Positions 4,868 through 48,706 of a DNA stretch of 64,000 bases are shown here, piece by piece; the first letter of the stretch is position 1; each line of letters opens with the position of its first letter. The stretch is from Escherichia phage vB_EcoM-LTH02, in the sequence record PP430346; one strand, written 5' to 3'. Both the position numbers and the translations under genes were made by a program. The notes beneath the pieces are model-generated. The model saw only the letters and a list, made by a program, of their open reading frames with translations. It had not been told where the DNA came from and made no database searches.

Positions 4868-5131
4868 ATGGAACACGTCGAACTGACCACACTTTTACAA
4901 ATTGCAACCGACAAAGAGGATGTAGCATTATTCCACCGCATCGAAAGTGATTTGTTCAATGGTGAAATCATTAAAGAATCTTATGAAGTTGTCGGATTCA
5001 AAGATGGTAAATCATTTGGATTCTTTGACCTCGACAAAGGCAAAGCGGTTACAAAATATGATGTTTTATCTTGTGAGATTCTGACAAAATACAACGAAAA
5101 AAGACTTGCAACATACGCCAACATGCAGTAA
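4868..5131 (+). CDS. hypothetical early protein (87 aa)
   Basis: Hairpin plus AAACTGGAGATTCAAA leader; ORF track. Confidence 0.55.
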   Translation: MEHVELTTLLQIATDKEDVALFHRIESDLFNGEIIKESYEVVGFKDGKSFGFFDLDKGKAVTKYDVLSCEILTKYNEKRLATYANMQ

Positions 5132-5199
5132 ATTACTAATCAACGGGGAGGGAATGACCTTCCCCACTAAGTAAAATCCTTAAACTAGGAGATTCTAAA

Positions 5200-5448
5200 A
5201 TGGCAACTATCCGCGCAACTGTCAATGCTTATGGCTGTTATACTCTGGACGTGAAATTTGATATTGGTGGGACTGATGAGTGTTTTTCATTAGTGAAGAC
5301 AGTTATCAAGCAAGTTATCCCAGATTATAACCCTACTGATGACTTCTGGAAAGATGCAGTAAAAGAGGCGTTGAACGATGAACATCATTACCATTATTGG
5401 GGTGACTTGATTGTCTCCCTGTACTACAATAAACAAGGTTACAACTAA
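5200..5448 (+). CDS. hypothetical early protein (82 aa)
   Basis: Conserved hairpin/SD module; last gene of the plus cassette, followed by an intrinsic terminator. Confidence 0.55.
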   Translation: MATIRATVNAYGCYTLDVKFDIGGTDECFSLVKTVIKQVIPDYNPTDDFWKDAVKEALNDEHHYHYWGDLIVSLYYNKQGYN

Positions 5449-5486
5449 TCGACGCAGCGGGGCTAAATAGCCCCAGATACCTTCAA

Positions 5487-5511
5487 AGCTCCTTTTCATA
5501 GGGGCTTTTTT
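5487..5511 (+). terminator. intrinsic terminator closing the early cassette
   Basis: Stem AGCTCC/GGGGCT with loop TTTTCATA followed by TTTTT; a second hairpin GGGGCTAAATAGCCCC sits at 5459-5474. Confidence 0.55.
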
Positions 5512-5977
5512 ACGTCTTATCGAATCTCTATACAATCCTTTCCCTTTCCTTCCCAGAATCTTACTAGACCTTAAAAGCAATAACTCTATAGCTTACTCTA
5601 TAACCTTTTATCAAATCAACTTAAATATAAGCCCATAACCCGAAAGGGAAGGGCAACCGTTTAAACGCTCTATAAAGCTCTATAACAGCCTTATCAACCT
5701 AACTTAAGGGATTGCATTAACTCACCCTTAAAAGCCCTTTATAAAGCTTCCTAGAGCCTTAAAAGAATCTTATAAGGGTGTAAGCTTTATCATCTCGTTA
5801 GCTATCTTGTGAACTACTAAAAATGGCTTGTTAGTGTCTTAAAAGTATGCTATAGGGGCTATAAAGTTACTCCAAAGTTACGTGAAAGGGGCTATAAAGT
5901 TACGTAAATGCTAGCCCCCTTAACATTTCTTTAACAATTTCTTAACAATCCCTACATAGTTATGCTTTTAAGGAACT

Positions 5978-7050
5978 TGTTAGCAACTTGTTAGCCCCTT
6001 GTTAAATCTTTGTTAAGACCACGTAAAAGCCTTGTAAGAGTCTTTGACATAGCCTTAAAAGCCCCTGTAAAGCCCTATAAATAGGTATCTGTACAGTTGG
6101 GGTGTAATTACTAGGAAGAGGCTTAAAAGAGCTTACAAAGAGCTATAGAGAGCTTTTAAGAGGGCTATTTAGAGAATCACTAAGAGGGAAAGGGAACGAT
6201 AAGAAAGAGATAGTGACCATGTTAATAGCTTGTTAAAAAGATTAAACACTTGTTAGAAACTTGTTAATTATCTTAACAAAATAACTCATAAAAATTAACT
6301 TGTTAGCTCTTGTTAGTCATCTGTTAAGAGACTATAAAGACCATGTAGCAACTGTTAAGAACTTGTTACAGCCTTGTTAGTTCTGTTAAGAGTCTGTTAA
6401 GACCTCTGAAGAGATGTTAAGAGGTTGAGAGAGTTGTTAAGAGATTGTTAATGATATTTTAAAATTCTGCAAAGGGGATGTTACAGGGATGTTAAGGGCT
6501 ACCAAGCAGATATACACCTTCTACAGATATTTTTGAGTTCCTTCAAAGACCCTAAAAAATGACTTGATAGTCCTATTTTATAAAAATTTTAAAATTCTGA
6601 ATAATTACCTAAACAGTCTTTTAAAAATACAGGCATAAACAGGCTTATAAGATACCTTGTTAATACCGTGTTAGACCTTGTGAGATAAGGTCTGTAAAGA
6701 TATTCCTGTTAAGTTTGTTAAAACAGTCTATATAGAGGCTTAGTAATACCTAGTGAACACCTATAGAGGGTAACATAGCTAACATAATGGGTTACTGTTA
6801 AGTAACACAGGTAACCTAGAGATTAAGAGGTGTATAGGGGCTTCTAAGAGGCTATAGAGAGATGGTTAAGGTGATTGTATAGGTTGTTAAGAAGGCTTGT
6901 TAGAAGGCTTGTTAGAGGGCTATTTAGAAGGTTTATACAGAAGGCTATTAAGACCACTAGATAGATACTAAGATACTATATAGTACTATATAACTATATA
7001 TAGAGAGTAAGCTTAAGAAGGTTGTTAAGAAGGATAGATATTTTATTCAC
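5978..7050. repeat. iteron-like array of TGTTA(A/G) repeats (more than 30 copies, one orientation, about 10-11 bp phasing)
   Basis: Copies at 6251, 6262, 6301, 6311, 6322, 6353, 6364, 6375, 6384, 6395, 6415, 6435, 6446, 6490 and further copies 5978-6030 and 6650-7050; spacings are 9-11 bp or multiples; no ORF above the track cutoff in 5581-7161. Confidence 0.7.
6968..7006. repeat. AT-rich block with three tandem ACTATATA units
   Basis: ATACTATATAGTACTATATAACTATATATAGAG; possible DNA-unwinding element next to the iteron array. Confidence 0.45.
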
Positions 7051-7161
7051 ATATGATGGTGACCCAGAGGTTGGGACAACCGATAAAATTTTATAAAAAT
7101 TATAAATTTCGTAAAATTTACTCAATAAAAAGCCCCCAATTAAGGAGGCTCTTAAGATATT

Positions 7162-7767
7162 TTAAATCAGTGTTTCCAGAACTGTCTTCAGTGATGACTT
7201 GGTTGTCTGATAAAAATGAGTAAATCCATTGTTGTTATCGAATACCTGCATCATGATATCATCTCCCTTGATTGGGTACACTCGGATATCATAGTGGAAC
7301 CCGTTAAAGACAGCAGAACCATTACAGAATGAACTAAAGTCATCCACTGAGATGTACTCTTCGTGACCTGTGATTTTTATACAAACACCTTTACTCGGTC
7401 TCTTAGGGTTGATATCTTCCATCACAGACATACTCTGTCCACCAAGAGATATCATAGTGACCACTTTACGGTTCTTCTGTCTAAAGTACATCTTAACTTT
7501 CTGTAAAGTATCTTCATAGAACGGATAAGACCTTTCTACAAAGATTCCTTCAAGTGGCTCTTTACCATTTTCAACTTCTCTGTTATGCCGTACTGCAAAG
7601 ATAATTTGTTCAAACCAGTCAAGATTTTCTTCGGATAGTGCTTCCCGAACATCATTCCAGTCAAGTACTAGGTAGTTACCTTCAACATCTTTTGAGTTAT
7701 CTTTTTTCATATCTATTACACCATTATCGTAAAACTTGGTAAGCTGGAACTGCAAACTTGTTGCCAT
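7162..7767 (-). CDS. hypothetical protein (201 aa)
   Basis: ORF track; ATG start verified; overlaps upstream ORF by 44 nt, so the true start may be the internal Met near 7710. Confidence 0.5.
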   Translation of the reverse strand: MATSLQFQLTKFYDNGVIDMKKDNSKDVEGNYLVLDWNDVREALSEENLDWFEQIIFAVRHNREVENGKEPLEGIFVERSYPFYEDTLQKVKMYFRQKNRKVVTMISLGGQSMSVMEDINPKRPSKGVCIKITGHEEYISVDDFSSFCNGSAVFNGFHYDIRVYPIKGDDIMMQVFDNNNGFTHFYQTTKSSLKTVLETLI

Positions 7768-14490: not shown

Positions 14491-14616
14491 AGGCTTATAA
14501 ATACTTAGAAGATAACTTAAAAGGTTCCTCTAAAAAGGCTATTTAAACAGATATCTTTCTGGATATCTATCTTTTATCTTAAAAGCCTTTTAAGAGGTCT
14601 TATAAGAGGCATACCA

Positions 14617-14988
14617 ATGAAAAACAGAACAAACAAAGGCCAGTTTAAAAAAGGCCAGTCTGGAAACCCATCTGGAAGACCAAAAGGCTCTCGTAACAAA
14701 AGCTCACTCGTAAAAGCTCAACTGACCATTGATAATTCTGCTGAGTTCGCTGCAAAGCTGTTTGAGGCGATTGTTACAAGGGACGCGGCTAAGCTTGCAG
14801 AGTTCGGGTTAAACACAGATGACGTAACCATCAAGAGTATGATTGAGGTCGGTAAAACTATCTTTACTCACTCAGCAGGTGAGATGAAAGCACTTGCAGC
14901 AGACACTAAGAAGGCTCCTGATAATGGTGGTCAACAACAGACAGATAACAAACCAACGTTCTCTGCTGTAGCGACTCTCAAAAAATAA
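14617..14988 (+). CDS. hypothetical protein with N-terminal basic motif GQSGNPSGRPKGSRNK
   Basis: ORF track; SD AAGAGG 8 nt upstream of ATG. Confidence 0.55.
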   Translation: MKNRTNKGQFKKGQSGNPSGRPKGSRNKSSLVKAQLTIDNSAEFAAKLFEAIVTRDAAKLAEFGLNTDDVTIKSMIEVGKTIFTHSAGEMKALAADTKKAPDNGGQQQTDNKPTFSAVATLKK

Positions 14989-15069: not shown

Positions 15070-16485
15070 ATGAGCGAGTTATTTAAACATGCGCACCTTC
15101 ATGCAGGTCGAACTGAAAATGGTGCTGTAAACCATACTTCATCAATGTCTGCTCTGGTAGACTTCTACAAAGCCGCTGGCTCAAGCCGTAGTAATGTAGA
15201 AATCTTACCAGACCTGTTCTACAAAGCTTTGCGTGAGGATGTTGATGTTGCAGTTCGTATTTTACTGCATATGCGAGATGTACGAGAAGGTATGGGTGAG
15301 CGTAAAGCTTTCCGAACTGTTTTACTTCAAGCGATTGAAGATAAGTTTTTAGAGCCTACACAGGTTCTTCGCATTATGGATAAGATTGTAGAACTTGGTC
15401 GTTTTGATGACTTCAAAATCTTCATAGGTACTCGTTTTGAGACAGATGCCTTCAAACATTTAGAAGCAGCATTACTAGACCCTGCAACAGCAGGTTTAGC
15501 AGCTAAGTGGTTACCACGAGTAAAACCACGCCACAAACAGTTTGTAAAACGTTTCTGTAAGTTTGCAAACTTAAGCGAGAAAGAGTACCGCACACTGTTA
15601 TCTGCACTGTCTGATACGGTTGAGCAAAAAATCTCTGCTAATGAGTTTGGTAAGATTGACTACAGCAAGATTCCTTCACTCGCTGCTGCACGTTACCAAA
15701 AGCTCTTTAACCGTAAAGATGGGGAACGTTACAAAGCTTATATCGAGTCACTCTCAAAAGGTGAGGCTAAGATTAACGCTGGTGCTGTTTACCCATACGA
15801 TGTGATTAAATCTATTAAGTATGGTAATGCAGATGTTGCTAATGAGCAGTGGAAAGCACTTCCAAACTGGATGGCAGAAGGTGAAAACATCTTGTGTATG
15901 ACTGATGTTTCAAGCTCAATGTCTTGGGTGAATCTTGGCTCAATTACTGCCCTTGATATTGGTGTATCACTTGCCTTATATGTAGCAGAACGCAATACAG
16001 GTTGCTTTAAAGATGAGTTAATGGTCTATTCAACAAACCCTCATTTCATTGAACTGAGTGGTGATTTACGAAACCGTCATCGTCAGGTAATGCGTCATGT
16101 TGAATATGGTTCAACTAACTTACAAGCAGCTTTTGACCGTATTCTTGAGATAGGTAAGAGAAACAACTTGACTCAGAAAGATATGCCAAGTAAGCTTATC
16201 ATCTTCTCCGATATGGAGTTCAATCAGGTTGATGGAGCTAACGGTCGTACAAACTTTGAAGCAATTCAGAGTAAGTACAAAAAAGCTGGATATGAGATGC
16301 CACAACTAGTATTCTGGTACTTAGCAAACCGTAATGGTACTTGCGAAGTGTCTGTTAAGGATAATGGTGTAGCAATGGTATCAGGGTTCTCTCCAGCCAC
16401 TTTAAAAGCTCTGCTTGGTGGTGAGAAGTTTGACCCAATCAGCGTAATGCTCAAAGCAGTAATGATTGACCGTTACATCTGGTAA
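15070..16485 (+). CDS. vWA-domain protein with MIDAS motif, possibly Ro60/TROVE-like
   Basis: 471 aa; MIDAS D-x-S-x-S in ILCMTDVSSSMS followed by a vWA-like C-terminal region; N-terminal helical region with TENGAV...SALVDFY; gene lies immediately upstream of the tRNA array. The vWA call is from sequence; the Ro60/TROVE assignment is from my memory of the family and its position, not a search. Confidence 0.55.
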   Translation: MSELFKHAHLHAGRTENGAVNHTSSMSALVDFYKAAGSSRSNVEILPDLFYKALREDVDVAVRILLHMRDVREGMGERKAFRTVLLQAIEDKFLEPTQVLRIMDKIVELGRFDDFKIFIGTRFETDAFKHLEAALLDPATAGLAAKWLPRVKPRHKQFVKRFCKFANLSEKEYRTLLSALSDTVEQKISANEFGKIDYSKIPSLAAARYQKLFNRKDGERYKAYIESLSKGEAKINAGAVYPYDVIKSIKYGNADVANEQWKALPNWMAEGENILCMTDVSSSMSWVNLGSITALDIGVSLALYVAERNTGCFKDELMVYSTNPHFIELSGDLRNRHRQVMRHVEYGSTNLQAAFDRILEIGKRNNLTQKDMPSKLIIFSDMEFNQVDGANGRTNFEAIQSKYKKAGYEMPQLVFWYLANRNGTCEVSVKDNGVAMVSGFSPATLKALLGGEKFDPISVMLKAVMIDRYIW

Positions 16486-16495
16486 AAAGTTTTAA

Positions 16496-16527
16496 AAAGG
16501 GTATTGACAATGTGTTTGATACCCTTT
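16496..16527 (+). promoter_or_regulatory. hairpin (AAAGGGTAT/ATACCCTTT) after the vWA gene with an embedded TTGACA
   Basis: 9-bp inverted repeat enclosing TTGACA at 16504-16509. Confidence 0.4.
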
Positions 16528-16594
16528 AATATGTTCTACATAGAAACGAAATGAGAGCTTTTCTAAGATACTGAAAAATATTTTAAAAAAGTTC

Positions 16595-16623
16595 TTGACA
16601 ACCACTAAAAAATAATGTTAAAG
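16595..16623 (+). promoter_or_regulatory. candidate promoter of the tRNA operon (TTGACA-17-TTAAAG)
   Basis: TTGACA 16595-16600, 17-nt spacer, weak -10 TTAAAG; first tRNA begins at 16651; flanked by inverted repeat AACCACT/AGTGGTT. Confidence 0.45.
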
Positions 16624-16650
16624 TGGTTACATAGAGTTTGAAAAGTTTAT

Positions 16651-16727
16651 CTCTGTTTAGCTCAGCTTGGTAGAGCGTTCCGTTTGGGGCGGTAAGGCCG
16701 GAGGTTCAAGTCCTCCAACAGAGACCA
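16651..16727 (+). tRNA. tRNA-Pro (anticodon TGG)
   Basis: Cloverleaf by eye: acceptor CTCTGTT/AACAGAG, D GCTC..GAGC, anticodon loop TTTGGGG, T-arm GGAGG-TTCAAGT-CCTCC, CCA encoded. Confidence 0.75.
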
Positions 16728-16734
16728 AATTAAT

Positions 16735-16812
16735 GTTCCAGTAGACAAAATGGTAAAGTCACCACTCTTTCAAAGTGGATATTTGAGGGTTCAAATCCCT
16801 TCTGGAACGCCA
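16735..16812 (+). tRNA. tRNA-Glu (anticodon TTC)
   Basis: Acceptor GTTCCAG/CTGGAAC, anticodon stem CCACT/AGTGG with loop CTTTCAA, T-loop TTCAAAT, CCA encoded. Confidence 0.75.
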
Positions 16813-16819
16813 GTTTTGA

Positions 16820-16892
16820 CAGAAGACCAATTGCAGCAAACTTAATCTTATTCATCTGACACGAAATCGGACAAAGAAGAGATTTGGTCTGG
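16820..16892 (+). ncRNA. structured element of the AGACC/GGTCT stem family (a)
   Basis: 5' CAGAAGACCAA-TTGCAGCAA ... TTGGTCTGG 3'; terminal 7-bp stem AGACCAA/TTGGTCT; lies between tRNA-Glu and tRNA-Met. Confidence 0.45.
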
Positions 16893-16903
16893 TCATTAAG
16901 AAT

Positions 16904-16980
16904 TGCGGGTATAGAGAAAGGGCGTCTCACATGTCTCATTAGCATGGTATCGGCAGGTTCGACTCCTGCACCCGCCTCCA
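16904..16980 (+). tRNA. tRNA-Met-like (anticodon CAT), irregular
   Basis: Anticodon stem CATGT/GCATG with loop CTCATTA, D-stem GAGA/TCTC, T-arm GCAGG-TTCGACT-CCTGC, 3' ACCCGCC-T-CCA; the acceptor pairs only with a T1/C72 mismatch or an extra nucleotide before the D-stem. Confidence 0.5.
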
Positions 16981-16986
16981 ATTTTG

Positions 16987-17046
16987 CAGAAGACCGTATT
17001 CAGCAACAAACTACTTTTTGCGGATAAAAGAAAAAACACGGTCTGG
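16987..17046 (+). ncRNA. structured element of the AGACC/GGTCT stem family (b)
   Basis: CAGAAGACCG-TATTCAGCAA ... CGGTCTGG; stem uses CG where elements a and c use CAA/TTG (compensatory change). Confidence 0.45.
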
Positions 17047-17057
17047 CAATGTATTAA

Positions 17058-17134
17058 GGTTAGGAAGCACATAAGGTATGTGCGGTCGCCTGTTAAGCGA
17101 ATGGCACAGGGTTCGAATCCCTGACTAACCGCCA
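17058..17134 (+). tRNA. tRNA-Asn (anticodon GTT)
   Basis: Acceptor GGTTAGG/ACTAACC, D GCAC..GTGC, loop CTGTTAA, T-arm CAGGG-TTCGAAT-CCCTG, G-CCA. Confidence 0.75.
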
Positions 17135-17143
17135 AATTTAAAT

Positions 17144-17231
17144 GTGTCGTTATCCCGTAGATGGTAGCGGTGGGGACTGTAAATCCCTTGTCATTGAGAC
17201 TCGGTAGGTTCGACTCCTACACGGCACACCA
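17144..17231 (+). tRNA. tRNA-Tyr (anticodon GTA), class II
   Basis: Acceptor GTGTCGT/ACGGCAC, loop CTGTAAA, long variable arm, T-arm GTAGG-TTCGACT-CCTAC, A-CCA. Confidence 0.7.
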
Positions 17232-17237
17232 AATAAA

Positions 17238-17315
17238 GGTTATGTAGTTTAATCTGGTTAAAATACTCCCCTGTCACGGGAGATGATGAGGGTTCAAATC
17301 CCTTCGTAACCGCCA
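17238..17315 (+). tRNA. tRNA-Asp (anticodon GTC)
   Basis: Acceptor GGTTATG/CGTAACC, anticodon stem CTCCC/GGGAG with loop CTGTCAC, T-loop TTCAAAT, G-CCA. Confidence 0.75.
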
Positions 17316-17402
17316 AATTATAATAAGTATTTCAAGATGATGTTTTGAGAGGGCTATTTAGCCCCTCCCTTAAAGAGTTCTTACGAGTATTCTTTAAAGG
17401 AG

Positions 17403-17479
17403 CAGAAGACCAAATTCAGCAAGTACGTATGATATTTTCAAGCCAATTTAATTTTGAAAAAATTTAAAACTTGGTCTGG
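17403..17479 (+). ncRNA. structured element of the AGACC/GGTCT stem family (c)
   Basis: CAGAAGACCAA-ATTCAGCAAG ... TTGGTCTGG; internal hairpin TTTTCAA...TTGAAAA. Confidence 0.45.
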
Positions 17480-17492
17480 CTCAACAAATTTA

Positions 17493-17624
17493 CAGAAGAC
17501 CGTTTACAGCAAAACTTAAACAATCTATTTCTCCGGTAAAGAAAAGGCGAAGGTTCGATTCCTTCACTCGGCAGATGTCGAGTTGGTGTAATGGTAGCAC
17601 TTAAGATGATAAACAACGGTCTGG
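17493..17624 (+). ncRNA. YrlA-like (Y-RNA-like) candidate: terminal stem plus circularly permuted tRNA-like module
   Basis: Terminal stem AGAAGACCGTT (17495-17504) / AACGGTCT (17615-17622); inside, in this order: hairpin TTTCT-CCGGTAA-AGAAA (17528-17544), canonical T-arm GAAGG-TTCGATT-CCTTC (17549-17565), closed acceptor-like stem ACTCGGC-AGAT-GTCGAGT (17566-17583), D-arm GTGT-AATGGTA-GCAC (17586-17600). Confidence 0.55.
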
Positions 17625-17631
17625 TAATTAT

Positions 17632-17763
17632 CTTTGTAGATAAGTTATTAAGCTTACCTGTGAGTATGCGACCACAAAGGGTGAAAGGGTAAATTCTAGA
17701 TTTAAACCCAACAAGGCACATCGCTACAGACCTTAAGCAAGTCTGGGTAGCTTATCTACAAAG
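17632..17763 (+). ncRNA. structured region closed by a 13-bp long-range inverted repeat
   Basis: CTTTGTAGATAAG (17632-17644) pairs with CTTATCTACAAAG (17751-17763); encloses hairpin CAGACC-TTAAGCAA-GTCTGG (17726-17745). Confidence 0.4.
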
Positions 17764-17773
17764 ATAATTTAAT

Positions 17774-17849
17774 GGAAGTGTAGCAGAATGGTGATGCGGC
17801 AGACTTTTAATCTGACAGGCGATGGGTTCGAATCCCTCCACTTCTACCA
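17774..17849 (+). tRNA. tRNA-Lys (anticodon TTT)
   Basis: Acceptor GGAAGTG/CACTTCT, loop CTTTTAA, T-loop TTCGAAT, A-CCA; T-stem weak (3 bp). Confidence 0.65.
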
Positions 17850-17853
17850 ATAT

Positions 17854-17930
17854 GGTTCAGTCGCAGATAAGGTAATGCAAGGGTCTCATAAACCCTATGA
17901 ATGTGGGTTCGATTCCCATCTGAACCTCCA
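17854..17930 (+). tRNA. tRNA-Met or Ile2 (anticodon CAT)
   Basis: Acceptor GGTTCAG/CTGAACC, anticodon stem AGGGT/ACCCT with loop CTCATAA, T-arm GTGGG-TTCGATT-CCCAT, T-CCA. Confidence 0.75.
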
Positions 17931-21810: not shown

Positions 21811-22011
21811 ATGAGCGAGACCGTTTACAAAGAACTTTATGAAGCTAATAAGAAGCTGGAATTTATGCAGAATACTATTATGGCAATTGCAGACAGATTA
21901 TCTGTAGCAACAGGTATTGATATTAAAGAAGCATCTATGGATGCACTTCTTGATGCTGTTGATGCAAAGTTCGAAGTTAAGAAAGAAGAGACTGCTACAG
22001 ACTCTGAATAA
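21811..22011 (+). CDS. hypothetical protein (66 aa) upstream of large terminase
   Basis: ORF track; SD GGAGAAAAC; position is compatible with, but does not establish, a small terminase subunit. Confidence 0.45.
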   Translation: MSETVYKELYEANKKLEFMQNTIMAIADRLSVATGIDIKEASMDALLDAVDAKFEVKKEETATDSE

Positions 22012-22032
22012 TTCTATTTGCGGAGGTGCTTA

Positions 22033-23634
22033 ATGGACTTAAATGCTGTTAAGCAGAAGCGAGTGGAAGATGTTAGGAAAGTCCTAGCTGGAGAGTTGGG
22101 GCTTTCTGATGAAGTAAAAGAAATTATCAAATCATTCGGTAAAGACCCCTCTAAATTCCTTCCAACTCAAATTCTGACTTTATTAAGATACACACCAGAC
22201 CAAGTTAGACTTATCTTCAAATTGATGACTGATAAGAACTATGTAGCCCCTCAGCCGGGTTCTCAAGAGGTCTTTTTAAATACTAATGCTGACTTGGTTC
22301 TATATGGTGGTGCTGCTGGTGCTGGTAAAACTGCTGCATTGTTAATGGACTCTTTAAGGTTTATTGAAGACCCTAACTATAATGCTGTATATTTCCGTAG
22401 AAATACAACACAGTTACAAGGTGGTTTATGGCCTGCTGCAAAGAAACTATTTGGTAAGTTTGGCGGGGTTCCTCATGAGCAGAAGATGACTATCACATTC
22501 CCTTCTGGGGCAACTATTAAGTTCACCTACCTAGAACTTGAAAAGCACGCTGAAGGTCATCAGGGTATTGAATACTCAGCTATCTACTTTGACGAAGGTA
22601 CACACTTCTCTGCTTCACAGATTTCATACCTACAGACCCGTCTTCGTTCTGGTGCTGAAGGTGATTCATACATGAAGATTTCTATGAACCCAGATAGAGA
22701 CCACTTCATTTATGATTGGGTAGAGCCATTCTTAGATGAAGAAGGTTACCCAGACCCTGAGAAATGTGGTCGTATTCGTTGGTATGTCATGAATGATGGT
22801 GTGATGGTTTCTGATTGGGAGAGAGACAAGATTCTTGAAATGTTCCCTCTTGAGATTCCTCAGACATACACCTTCATCTCTGGTACGATTGATGATAACC
22901 CAATTCTTGACTTCTTAGAGCCTAAATATCGTGGTAAGTTGGAAAACAACACACCTGTAAACGTTGCAAGACTTCGTTTCGGTAACTGGAAGGCTCGTGC
23001 AGAAGGTTCAAACTATTGGCAAAGACAATGGTGTGAGATTGTTGATTCACTACCAGAAGATGTGTTTGATGTCAGAGCATGGGACTTAGCAGCGACTTTA
23101 CCATCTGAAATTAACCCTAACCCAGACTGGACAGCGGGTGTTAAGATGGGTAAATCTAAAAAAGACGGTTGCTATTATATCATTGATGTAGTAAGATTTA
23201 GAGATAGACCCTCTGGAGTCGAAACACAAATTAATTTGACTGCTGAAAGTGACGGTAAGCGAACTGGTATTTTTATCCCTCAAGACCCAGGCGCTGCTGG
23301 TAAATCCTATGCAACATCCCTCATCAGGAAACTTGCCGAGAAAGGTTATCGCGCAAGAGCTAAACCAACAAATAAAGATAAAGTTACCCGCTTTGCGGGA
23401 TTTTCTGCTGCTTCTGAAGCTGGACTTGTAAAAGTCTTGAGAGGTAGTTGGAATGAAGCTTACTTTCAAGAACTTGAAGGTTTTTGTGGCGATGGTAAAA
23501 CTAAAGATGACCAAGTGGATGCTACCAGTGATGCTTTCAACAGTCTTAACGAAGTTAAATTATTCAAGCCACCATCAATGGGTGCTCACACAGACTTAGT
23601 GAGAGGAAACCCATATGAGGGGCTTAGACGTTGA
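22033..23634 (+). CDS. terminase large subunit
   Basis: Walker A LYGGAAGAGKTAAL, Walker B-like AIYFDEGTHF, C-terminal nuclease-type region; start moved from TTG 22018 to ATG 22033 (SD GGAGG). Confidence 0.85.
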   Translation: MDLNAVKQKRVEDVRKVLAGELGLSDEVKEIIKSFGKDPSKFLPTQILTLLRYTPDQVRLIFKLMTDKNYVAPQPGSQEVFLNTNADLVLYGGAAGAGKTAALLMDSLRFIEDPNYNAVYFRRNTTQLQGGLWPAAKKLFGKFGGVPHEQKMTITFPSGATIKFTYLELEKHAEGHQGIEYSAIYFDEGTHFSASQISYLQTRLRSGAEGDSYMKISMNPDRDHFIYDWVEPFLDEEGYPDPEKCGRIRWYVMNDGVMVSDWERDKILEMFPLEIPQTYTFISGTIDDNPILDFLEPKYRGKLENNTPVNVARLRFGNWKARAEGSNYWQRQWCEIVDSLPEDVFDVRAWDLAATLPSEINPNPDWTAGVKMGKSKKDGCYYIIDVVRFRDRPSGVETQINLTAESDGKRTGIFIPQDPGAAGKSYATSLIRKLAEKGYRARAKPTNKDKVTRFAGFSAASEAGLVKVLRGSWNEAYFQELEGFCGDGKTKDDQVDATSDAFNSLNEVKLFKPPSMGAHTDLVRGNPYEGLRR

Positions 23635-48201: not shown

Positions 48202-48501
48202 TTAATCTGCCAACCTTAAATTAAAATTAACACCAAATTTTTCACATACTTCCAACATAAACTCAAGAGAGACATTACCAGTGAGGTTGATTATGTTGGA
48301 TACACGAGCCTGAGAGATACCACAAATTTTAGCAACTTGCTCTTGAGAAAGACCTCTGGATTTAATCTCTCTCTTAAAACGATGTGCAACGAAGTCTCTC
48401 ATTTCGTCTACATCCATTGGACAAATATAACTCTCCATTTCAGCCTCTCTGTCAGCCTCCCAATCATCTTGTGGAGCATAAGGGTCAAAAACCTCATTCA
48501 T
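48202..48501 (-). CDS. helix-turn-helix (XRE-like) DNA-binding protein
   Basis: LSQEQVAKICGISQARVSNIINL helix-turn-helix; track start is TTG at 48531, moved to ATG at 48501 with SD GGAAGAAG. Confidence 0.6.
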   Translation of the reverse strand: MNEVFDPYAPQDDWEADREAEMESYICPMDVDEMRDFVAHRFKREIKSRGLSQEQVAKICGISQARVSNIINLTGNVSLEFMLEVCEKFGVNFNLRLAD

Positions 48502-48706
48502 CTTTCTTCTTCCGTTTTCGTGAAGTGTCAATCAATGAATCTATGTTTGTAGCCCTAACCTTTTCACGTTCATCGTTAAGATAATCATCAAGAGCCTTTT
48601 CAATCTGTGAATCATCTTGACAGATAACTGTAAAGACTGTAAAGCCGTCTGTATCGTCAATTATCTTACCATAACCGCTTCTGGGATGTAACTTTTTAAG
48701 AGCCAT
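48494..48706 (-). CDS. hypothetical small protein (70 aa) directly upstream of the HTH gene
   Basis: ORF track; ATG start; 3' end overlaps the HTH gene start. Confidence 0.45.
   Translation of the reverse strand: MALKKLHPRSGYGKIIDDTDGFTVFTVICQDDSQIEKALDDYLNDEREKVRATNIDSLIDTSRKRKKKDE

Follow-up and report, generated by a model that had tools for sequence, protein, structure and literature searches.

We analyzed a 64,000-nucleotide stretch of DNA from Escherichia phage vB_EcoM-LTH02 (record PP430346; the window, numbered from its first letter on the strand shown) and describe here an array of short TGTTA(A/G) repeats (TGTTAR) that lies in its 5800-7050 region. Most copies of the array are on one strand, its copies keep step with the turn of the helix, it is conserved in related phages, and its dense core coincides with the DNA ends mapped in these relatives. 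This core (about 5914-6503) is most likely the direct terminal repeat (DTR) of the phage, assembled here as one copy, and the array most likely marks the cut site of the packaging enzyme rather than a replication origin. We give about an even chance to the reading that it is a protein-binding array which marks the concatemer junction for terminase recognition and end formation, with a small protein of the DUF5681 family as the most likely binder. A preliminary description of the region, made from the letters alone, had left the choice between an origin of replication, a partition or packaging site, and a binding array for a phage regulator.

A phased repeat array in a gap without genes

A megablast search with 5450-7170 as query returned 256 phage records at 76-94% identity, nearly all from Felixounavirus and the Citrobacter phages of Mooglevirus, and 171 of them span at least 80% of the query. 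Felixounaviruses are Felix O1-like myoviruses with E. coli, Salmonella and Shigella as hosts, and the window belongs to one of them; T5 with its injection-stop region had been considered at first and was dropped on the BLAST result. The array sits in a 1.7-kb gap free of open reading frames (ORFs), between gene clusters that converge on it and are each closed by a terminator. The ORF list holds no ORF of at least 60 amino acids in 5450-7170, in agreement with the ORF-poor region between convergent clusters noted in the preliminary description, and no ORF of at least 35 amino acids is positionally conserved in the gap across 26 distinct relatives. The small ORFs of the gap were rejected as genes because neither their position nor their frame is kept among the relatives. 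In AYO145A, a carefully annotated relative, the homologous stretch carries no coding sequence and is bordered on either side by a rho-independent terminator, with a plus-strand cluster of small genes on one side and a minus-strand cluster on the other.

Within 5800-7050 the TGTTAR motif occurs 29 times on the plus strand and 5 times on the minus strand, against a density of 1.8 per kb for both strands together (about 0.9 per kb per strand) in the rest of the window. The strict pattern YTGTTAR gives 25 and 3 copies and the TGTTA core 31 and 7 copies on the two strands, respectively. The number of more than 30 copies first put forward for (C/T)TGTTA(A/G) thus holds for the core (31 on the plus strand) and not for the strict pattern, of which 24 plus-strand copies lie in 5978-7050; the nearly uniform orientation is borne out by the TGTTAR counts. 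In the k-mer enrichment CTTGTTA stood out with 14 copies against 0.28 expected and no reverse copies. Out of the 31 plus-strand cores, 21 lie in the segment homologous to the DTR, together with three reverse copies at 5921-5943, and other copies reach about 520 bp rightward of it. Conservation was assessed on an alignment of the window with 25 other distinct relatives. The groups of copies within the DTR are as follows:

5919..5949, minus strand: three reverse motif copies at the left DTR boundary, with the 11-bp unit CTTAACAATTT (Tandem Repeats Finder and boundary alignment)
5974..6017, plus strand: four direct TGTTAR copies spaced exactly 11 bp, three of the sites being present in 25 of 25 relatives and the fourth in 20 of 25
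6220..6279, plus strand: four direct copies and one reverse copy (6274), from the motif scan and the conservation of sites in the relatives
6297..6451, plus strand: the main block, with 11 direct TGTTA cores, best conserved across three genera from 6353 onward
6475..6498, plus strand: two direct copies (TGTTAC and TGTTAA) touching the right DTR boundary, from tandem-repeat, boundary-alignment and inverted-repeat analyses

Neighboring copies are 11 bp apart in 12 of 30 intervals and 9-13 bp apart in 17 of 30, and spacings of 20, 31 and 33 bp also occur. For the 21 plus-strand cores in 5914-6503 the Rayleigh statistic R reaches 0.79 at a period of 10.4 bp (p<0.0005; the maximum R of the null over periods of 9.5-12 bp is 0.40 +/- 0.07), which upholds the proposal that the copies face one side of the helix. 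The whole 5800-7050 stretch gives R=0.52 (p=0.0005). The phase coherence bridges a 209-bp gap, and the local steps (11, 20 and 31 bp) come out on average at the helical repeat of B-DNA. The array and its phasing are kept in the relatives, a comparison that the preliminary description had called for: in 26 out of 26, R lies between 0.70 and 0.82 with a best period of 10.15-10.55 bp (median 10.4), while the DTR homologue measures 562-658 bp. Since its length varies and R stays high, the phasing has been maintained through insertions and deletions. With a spacing of 9-12 or 20-22 bp as the definition of a phased TGTTA pair, the region has 19 such pairs and the plus strand of the other 62.7 kb has 3, and this near confinement to the array indicates one target locus in 64 kb.

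The array core coincides with the mapped DNA ends of related phages

The ends of the felixounavirus UAB_Phi87 were mapped by Bardina et al. (2016), who also summarized the types of phage DNA ends, by run-off sequencing and by Bal31 digestion, which gave discrete Bal31-sensitive fragments; the resulting 608-bp repeat was printed in that study. We took the UAB_Phi87 DTR from the published supplementary sequence and not from the GenBank record. Its run-off sequence AACATTTTCTTAACA...GGGCTACCAA (printed as AACATTTTCTTAACAATTCTTAACAATCCCTACATAG...GGGGATGTTACAGGGATGTTAAGGGCTACCAA) is the homologue of window 5922-6505. The GenBank record itself, JN225449.1, begins within the tRNA region, and its two ends share 542 identical bp; we rejected this overlap as the DTR because it differs from the experimentally determined repeat and looks like an assembly artefact.

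Sequence records of other phages lead to the same place. Phage D4 has an exact 581-bp repeat at both record ends and the Mooglevirus HP1 an annotated 570-bp repeat_region at 1-570 and 88766-89335, and both map to window 5914-6503. The records of D4, E9, SeKF_63 and HP1 all start at one homologous base, window 5914, and in many records the first base falls about 1.2 kb upstream of the flanking gene, where the DTR starts. PhageTerm reports of DTRs exist for D4 (in its announcement) and E9, and 581-bp terminal repeats were reported for Pr103Blw. In Kolesnikvirus, the records of Roscha1, Hena2 and Prophecy start at homologues of window 5913-5915 and those of MM7, the vEam_* phages and SPARTY end at homologues of 6502-6505; each such record has two matching places, from which a DTR of about 440 bp in this position can be deduced. 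In all, independent records from three genera start at homologues of 5913-5915 and end at homologues of 6502-6505, as non-permuted, fixed ends do. Among the options first listed for the array, it is thus the packaging site that gains from the coincidence of the core with the DTR mapped in UAB_Phi87 and with the starts and ends of several records; the termini, which might have been mapped elsewhere, map here. The segment and the element that follows it are:

5914..6503, plus strand: homologue of the virion DTR (about 590 bp), with left-end calls at 5913-5915 (record starts) or 5922 (run-off) and right-end calls at 6502-6505
6504..6516, plus strand: AAGCAGATATACA, the conserved right-boundary element, identical in HP1 and phiEa21-4

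With a slash for the boundary, the left end reads ...GTTACGTAAATGCTA/GCCCCCTTAACATTTCTTTAACAATTTCTTAACA and the right end ...GGGGATGTTACAGGGATGTTAAGGGCTACC/AAGCAGATATACA. Motif copies adjoin both boundaries (5919-5949 and 6475-6498), and the inner edges of the DTR, 5917-5936 and 6479-6498, form a 20-nt inverted repeat with 85% identity. The 11-bp unit at the left boundary, CTTAACATTT(T), varies from 2 to 4 copies among relatives. In the 25 close relatives that reach the right boundary, AAGCAGATATACA shows zero substitutions.

Conservation of the motif within and beyond the genus

In the alignment, identity to the window is 97.1% at the motif positions of the DTR and 86.9% at its other positions. 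Conservation averages 98.4% for the 21 TGTTA cores, whereas random 5-mer sets drawn from the DTR reach 89.4 +/- 2.5% (p<0.0002), and 17 of these 21 sites occur in 24 or more of the 25 relatives. These figures indicate selection on the motif itself. Copies beyond the DTR are less stable: those at 6796, 6885 and 6910 vary, partly through the copy number of a tandem repeat.

The Erwinia phage phiEa21-4 (Kolesnikvirus) is similar to the window only at the protein level (69% for the large terminase subunit, TerL, and 40-60% for many others). Its syntenic ORF-free gap (16472-17900) holds 18 TGTTAR on the plus strand and 9 on the minus strand, against 0.77 per kb per strand elsewhere. Alignment of the three genera revealed as conserved modules the left-boundary module, a right block of about nine TGTTAA copies and AAGCAGATATACA; from 6353 onward the motif copies can be matched position for position with those of HP1 and phiEa21-4.

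A candidate binder encoded at the head of the late genes

Felix O1-like phages are described in the literature as having a large terminase only, with no small terminase found, a statement made for Felix O1 since 2010, and the Pharokka annotation of D4 contains no small terminase either. The two genes that matter here are:

22018..23634, plus strand: TerL, the enzyme expected to cut at the DTR boundaries (phrog_979, E=1e-233)
14617..14988, plus strand: a 123-amino-acid DUF5681 protein (Pfam DUF5681, E=2e-14), candidate small terminase (TerS) and candidate binder of the array

The DUF5681 gene is the first of the late plus-strand block that contains TerL, with the tRNA cluster between the two genes. 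Its product is 60% identical to gp42 of phiEa21-4, and the protein accompanies the array in every genus that has it. In contigs of unrelated phages (L035, L038 and L043) the gene of a distant DUF5681 homologue lies directly upstream of TerL or overlaps it. The TerL that adjoins homologue P0046 belongs to Terminase_6N/Terminase_3 and the one that adjoins P0056 is a 470-amino-acid protein of phrog_38 (E=2e-99), while the 442-amino-acid protein adjoining P0052 was not identified and the gene of P0044 lies about 2.5 kb upstream of TerL. Across 30 homologues the N-terminal sequence FKKGQSGNPsGRPKGSRNK is invariant or nearly so. Its AT-hook-like Gly-Arg-Pro core (G20, R21 and P22) is invariant, K12, R26 and N27 are invariant or nearly invariant, and GRPKGSRNK shares 8 of 9 residues with GRPKGSKNK of HMG-I/Y.

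We also searched for phased arrays near the DUF5681 genes of four unrelated phages; one (L041) was positive and the other three had none. In L041, a marine TARA phage contig, five tandem 11-bp units CATTTAATAAA occupy 2567-2625, with further TTAATAA copies, in an intergenic stretch about 400 bp upstream of a DUF5681-like gene, and these repeats may be an analogous phased array with an AT core.

Other candidates for the small terminase were discarded. The 66-amino-acid ORF 21811-22011 on the plus strand, immediately upstream of TerL, has no informative family match; its product is helical and acidic, and gp45 of phiEa21-4 is a positional counterpart of similar length and character without detectable sequence match. 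A 75-amino-acid ORF near TerL also gave no informative match and occupies the place of the tRNA-Cys gene of D4, and DUF7217 and DUF7338 were uninformative as leads.

A proposed role at the packaging junction

Phages with exact DTRs have one copy of the repeat per concatemer junction, and their terminase must recognize this junction and make both ends. The motif is base-specific, its copies lie on one helical face, it is found at a single locus, it fills the DTR and it abuts both cuts; a protein-binding array is therefore the best explanation of the repeats. We infer the binding of a protein, a role in packaging and the identity of the binder as follows. Both ends of the packaged linear chromosome would bear the DTR, and in replicating concatemers one copy would lie wherever two genome units join. 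A sequence-specific protein would bind the TGTTA(A/G) units, and the approximately 20 copies of the same orientation on one helical face would give rise to a wrapped or filament-like nucleoprotein complex along the whole DTR, which would mark the junction for the packaging machinery. TerL would cut at TA/GCC on the left, beside the reverse copies, and at ...AC(C)/AAGCAGATATACA on the right. The DUF5681 protein (14617-14988) would act as a so far unrecognized small terminase, its GRPKGSRNK arm reading the minor groove at the TTAA part of each unit. In its most specific form this proposal would make DUF5681 a new class of small terminase in the Ounavirinae, one that uses an AT-hook-like arm instead of a helix-turn-helix (HTH), sits on some 20 phased TGTTAA units filling the DTR and wraps the junction so that TerL cuts at both borders; this we consider possible, though doubtful.

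Several observations weigh against a binder-marked packaging junction. Motif copies run about 500 bp past the right boundary of the DTR, which a pure terminal-repeat role does not explain, published calls of the left end disagree by up to 8 nt, and the DTR of vB_EcoM-LTH02 itself is assigned by homology to relatives at 76-94% identity. Phage phiEa21-4 lacks the middle third of the DTR (about 6040-6340), so that not all copies can be needed, and the terminal inverted repeat of that phage is not at the same distance. The Yersinia phage vB_YenM_P778, a more distant relative, has a DUF5681 homologue and keeps the boundary element as AAGCAGGTATACA, yet no regular forward TGTTAR array was found in it: its 86600-87700 region has about ten reverse TAACA, few forward ones and a TGTAAAGTTA repeat family. 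The architecture of the array is thus not uniform across phages with this DUF5681 subfamily. As to the protein, its best match of solved structure, the HMG-I/Y AT-hook PRGRPKGSKNKG, is not significant (E=0.4) and it lacks the first arginine of the canonical RGRP, the residue before the glycine being S, N, A or L. PHROGs and Pfam class DUF5681 as of unknown function and Pfam gives no other assignment. The AlphaFold model is moderate (pLDDT 68), with a disordered N-terminal arm, three helices and a disordered tail, and the fold search gave no significant match, three small terminases appearing only among weak hits (E 7-10). It is gene order that suggests a small terminase in the DUF5681 protein, an assignment in which we have low-to-moderate confidence.

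Alternative explanations

In a replication origin of the iteron type an initiator from the phage or the host would bind the phased repeats and open AT-rich DNA, at 6570-6640 or 6961-7002, and the overlap with the DTR would be secondary. We find this rather unlikely, even if the anatomy to which the preliminary description had pointed is real: direct repeats in one orientation and in phase lie beside AT-rich, highly conserved DNA, as in a classic iteron origin, and the locus is single in the genome. In phage T7 the promoter phiOL is associated with a secondary origin. The T7 record places phiOL just inside the left-end repeat arrays, which is a further point in favor of an origin here. AT-rich stretches occur at both places in a phage that has only 38% G+C as a whole, and either could be a candidate unwinding element. 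However, the region contains one DnaA box (7043) and no IHF consensus site, and the DnaA, IHF and Chi patterns show no enrichment in it; the genes that flank the array gave no informative Pfam or PHROG match and none of an initiator-like kind. The GC-skew analysis suggested for locating an origin was run and was uninformative, as the changes in skew track gene orientation only. Units of 6-8 bp in about 20 copies are unlike the known iterons of 17-22 bp, and the array boundaries fall within a few bases of mapped DNA ends, which an origin does not predict. A structural or end-related role, with no recognition by the terminase, is in our judgement unlikely. The phased repeats would then make the DNA intrinsically curved or easy to wrap, or they would attract a protein for the protection, pairing or anchoring of chromosome ends. 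Such a protein could shield the ends from RecBCD, help them recombine end to end into concatemers or keep the end packaged last in the portal. Such a role fits the presence of the array on both virion ends as part of the DTR, the 10.4-bp coherence over 520 bp, which is what curvature or wrapping requires, and the lack of a RecBCD inhibitor in the related phage Bas63 (PhageMaP preprint). The 98% invariance of TGTTA argues for base-specific reading rather than for shape alone, though, and the conserved sequence exactly at both cut positions suggests recognition by an enzyme. A structural or end-protecting role would be compatible with one in packaging.

Control of transcription is very unlikely to be the function of the array. 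It would act either as a set of sites for a regulator, such as the HTH_3 protein encoded at 48202-48531, or as a cluster of -35-like TTAACA elements to which RNA polymerase of the host would be recruited or by which it would be titrated. An XRE-type HTH protein is indeed encoded in the window, and TTAACA, the reverse complement of the motif, matches the -35 element TTGACA at 5 of 6 positions. Promoter-like matches in a sigma-70 scan are in excess (15 against 6.7 +/- 2.8) because of this very resemblance. But there is no gene to control in the region, which is enclosed by two convergent terminators, the phased motif is absent from other intergenic regions, and no Rfam family or conserved ORF suggests a product; the Rfam scan, which covered 5300-7400, gave nothing near any gathering score. 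The HTH protein, which the preliminary description had named as a possible binder, is a poor candidate: tblastn detected no homologue in phiEa21-4, where the array is kept. A resemblance of the motif to the PhoP box, followed up as a lead, was dropped as no PhoP box is present. The partition site, also among the early suggestions, is unlikely because the phage is strictly lytic and its DNA linear, and no Par-family match was obtained for the flanking genes.

Comparison with known systems and implications

Among the systems that we could check, the left end of phage T7 is the nearest parallel to the array. Both phages are virulent, with a short exact DTR and a T7-like replisome, and both carry many 6-7-bp motif copies of one orientation in and beside the DTR. 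In the T7 record (NC_001604) we counted 3 copies of CCTAAAG-type repeats in the first 160 bp, which are the DTR, and 12 NTAAAG in 175-356. The two systems differ in the motif (CCTAAAG against TGTTAR) and in geometry: the T7 copies recur every 13 bp (R=0.89 at 13.1 bp, R=0.26 at 10.4 bp) and rotate round the helix, whereas those described here, about 21 in number within the DTR, repeat at 10.4 bp on one face and fill the DTR itself. As far as tested, gp18, the small terminase of T7, has no relation to DUF5681.

Terminase sites made of repeated boxes include lambda cosB (R sites and IHF), SPP1 pacL/pacR and P1 pac (seven TGATCA/G hexamers flanking the cut). Their boxes cluster round the points of cleavage, where the small terminase is believed to form an oligomeric complex on bent DNA. 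They have 3-7 elements in 100-200 bp, compared with about 20-30 over 0.6-1.1 kb here, and the ends in our case are exact terminal repeats, not cohesive or headful. Unlike cosB, the array region has no IHF site. P1-like control by Dam is impossible since the 64-kb window contains no GATC at all, against 185 +/- 12 expected from dinucleotide-preserving shuffles. This total absence points to strong counter-selection, for example against GATC-specific restriction or a Dam-linked system.

Iteron origins (lambda ori, P1 oriR, pSC101, R6K) share with the array the phased direct repeats beside AT-rich DNA and differ in their 17-22-bp units, against 6-8 bp in far more copies here, where there is no adjacent initiator gene or DnaA-box cluster and the location is at DNA ends. 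The parC site of plasmid R1, with ten 11-bp direct repeats, resembles the array in its blocks of direct repeats at 11-bp spacing, which would be expected to wrap round a protein scaffold. In contrast to parC, no par operon lies beside the array or is annotated in the relatives, the phage is strictly lytic and linear, and the array stands at the chromosome termini.

The DTR and its sequence are already published (2016) and the PhageTerm results are routine. Neither the Felix O1 genome paper nor further full-text searches turned up an account of the array, of its phasing, of its conservation in several genera or of a candidate for the small terminase. Felix O1-like phages are widely used in the typing of Salmonella and E. 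coli, in biocontrol and in therapy, and the link between array and termini offers a concrete cis-acting packaging signal together with a candidate protein that can be tested. It could be of use in phage engineering, by indicating which parts of the 1.7-kb gap may be altered, in judging the risk of transduction and in opening genome records at their true ends. The array would be a second example, after T7, of short repeats tied to exact terminal repeats, with a one-face geometry that hints at wrapping. If the proposal is true, DUF5681 would supply the "missing" small terminase of Felix O1 and a widespread domain would gain a function.

Other features of the region

The remaining features lie beside the DTR:

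5449..5519, plus strand: terminator region that ends the plus-strand cluster of small (early-type) genes, with hairpins GGGGCT...AGCCCC and GGGGCTTTTTT in the sequence and the AYO145A terminator at the homologous place
5520..5913, plus strand: unique flank to the left of the DTR, with a separate repeat family of one orientation, CTATAAAG / CTTAAAAG (k-mer enrichment)
6540..6760, no strand: very conserved non-coding block with 94-99% identity, AT-rich at 6570-6640 and with four more motif copies at 6658-6721
6884..6931, plus strand: tandem 12-bp repeat TTGTTAGAAGGC, 3.9 copies, variable in copy number (tandem-repeat analysis and alignment)
6961..7002, no strand: AT-rich tandem repeat of period 8 (ACTATATA / ATATATACT), 4.8 copies, 92-97% conserved
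7127..7160, minus strand: terminator of the minus-strand gene cluster, with a stem at 7147-7133 and then a T run (AYO145A annotation)

The AT-rich ACTATATA block that the preliminary description had reported is thus present, as the period-8 repeat. For the 12-bp repeat, phiEa21-4 has a comparable GTTAAG cluster ahead of its terminator. The 6540-6760 block is more conserved among the 26 relatives than the neighboring coding ends, and its CTTCAAAG and CTTGATAG are common to phiEa21-4.

In the left flank (5520-5913) CTATAA occurs 7 times with no reverse copies and CTTAAAAG 6 times; the latter has 19 plus-strand occurrences in the whole window. These repeats are genus-specific, as phiEa21-4 has CTTCTAA in place of CTATAAAG / CTTAAAAG. 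Further to the left, a stretch of about 75 bp at 5127-5204, directly before the ORF at 5200, has matches in three distinct parts of the early region of D4 (132-204, 243-281 and 809-869 of the D4 locus), and the Felix O1 paper describes 57-bp intergenic repeats containing GGGGCTTAAAAGTCTGTAAAGTAAGCCCC. The D4 matches, the CTTAAAAG copies and the Felix O1 repeats may all represent a repeated regulatory or terminator element of the early region.

The sequence TATAAATA, which we take to be the T4 late-promoter consensus, is found inside the DTR at 6076-6083. This is one of two copies in 64 kb; the other, at 14496, lies about 120 bp upstream of the DUF5681 gene that opens the late block. Lastly, the 147-kb record of Staphylococcus phage SA1 (GU169904.1) contains a Felix O1-like region at 135358-137087 with 86% identity, the flanking genes included, which suggests that this record is chimeric or contaminated.

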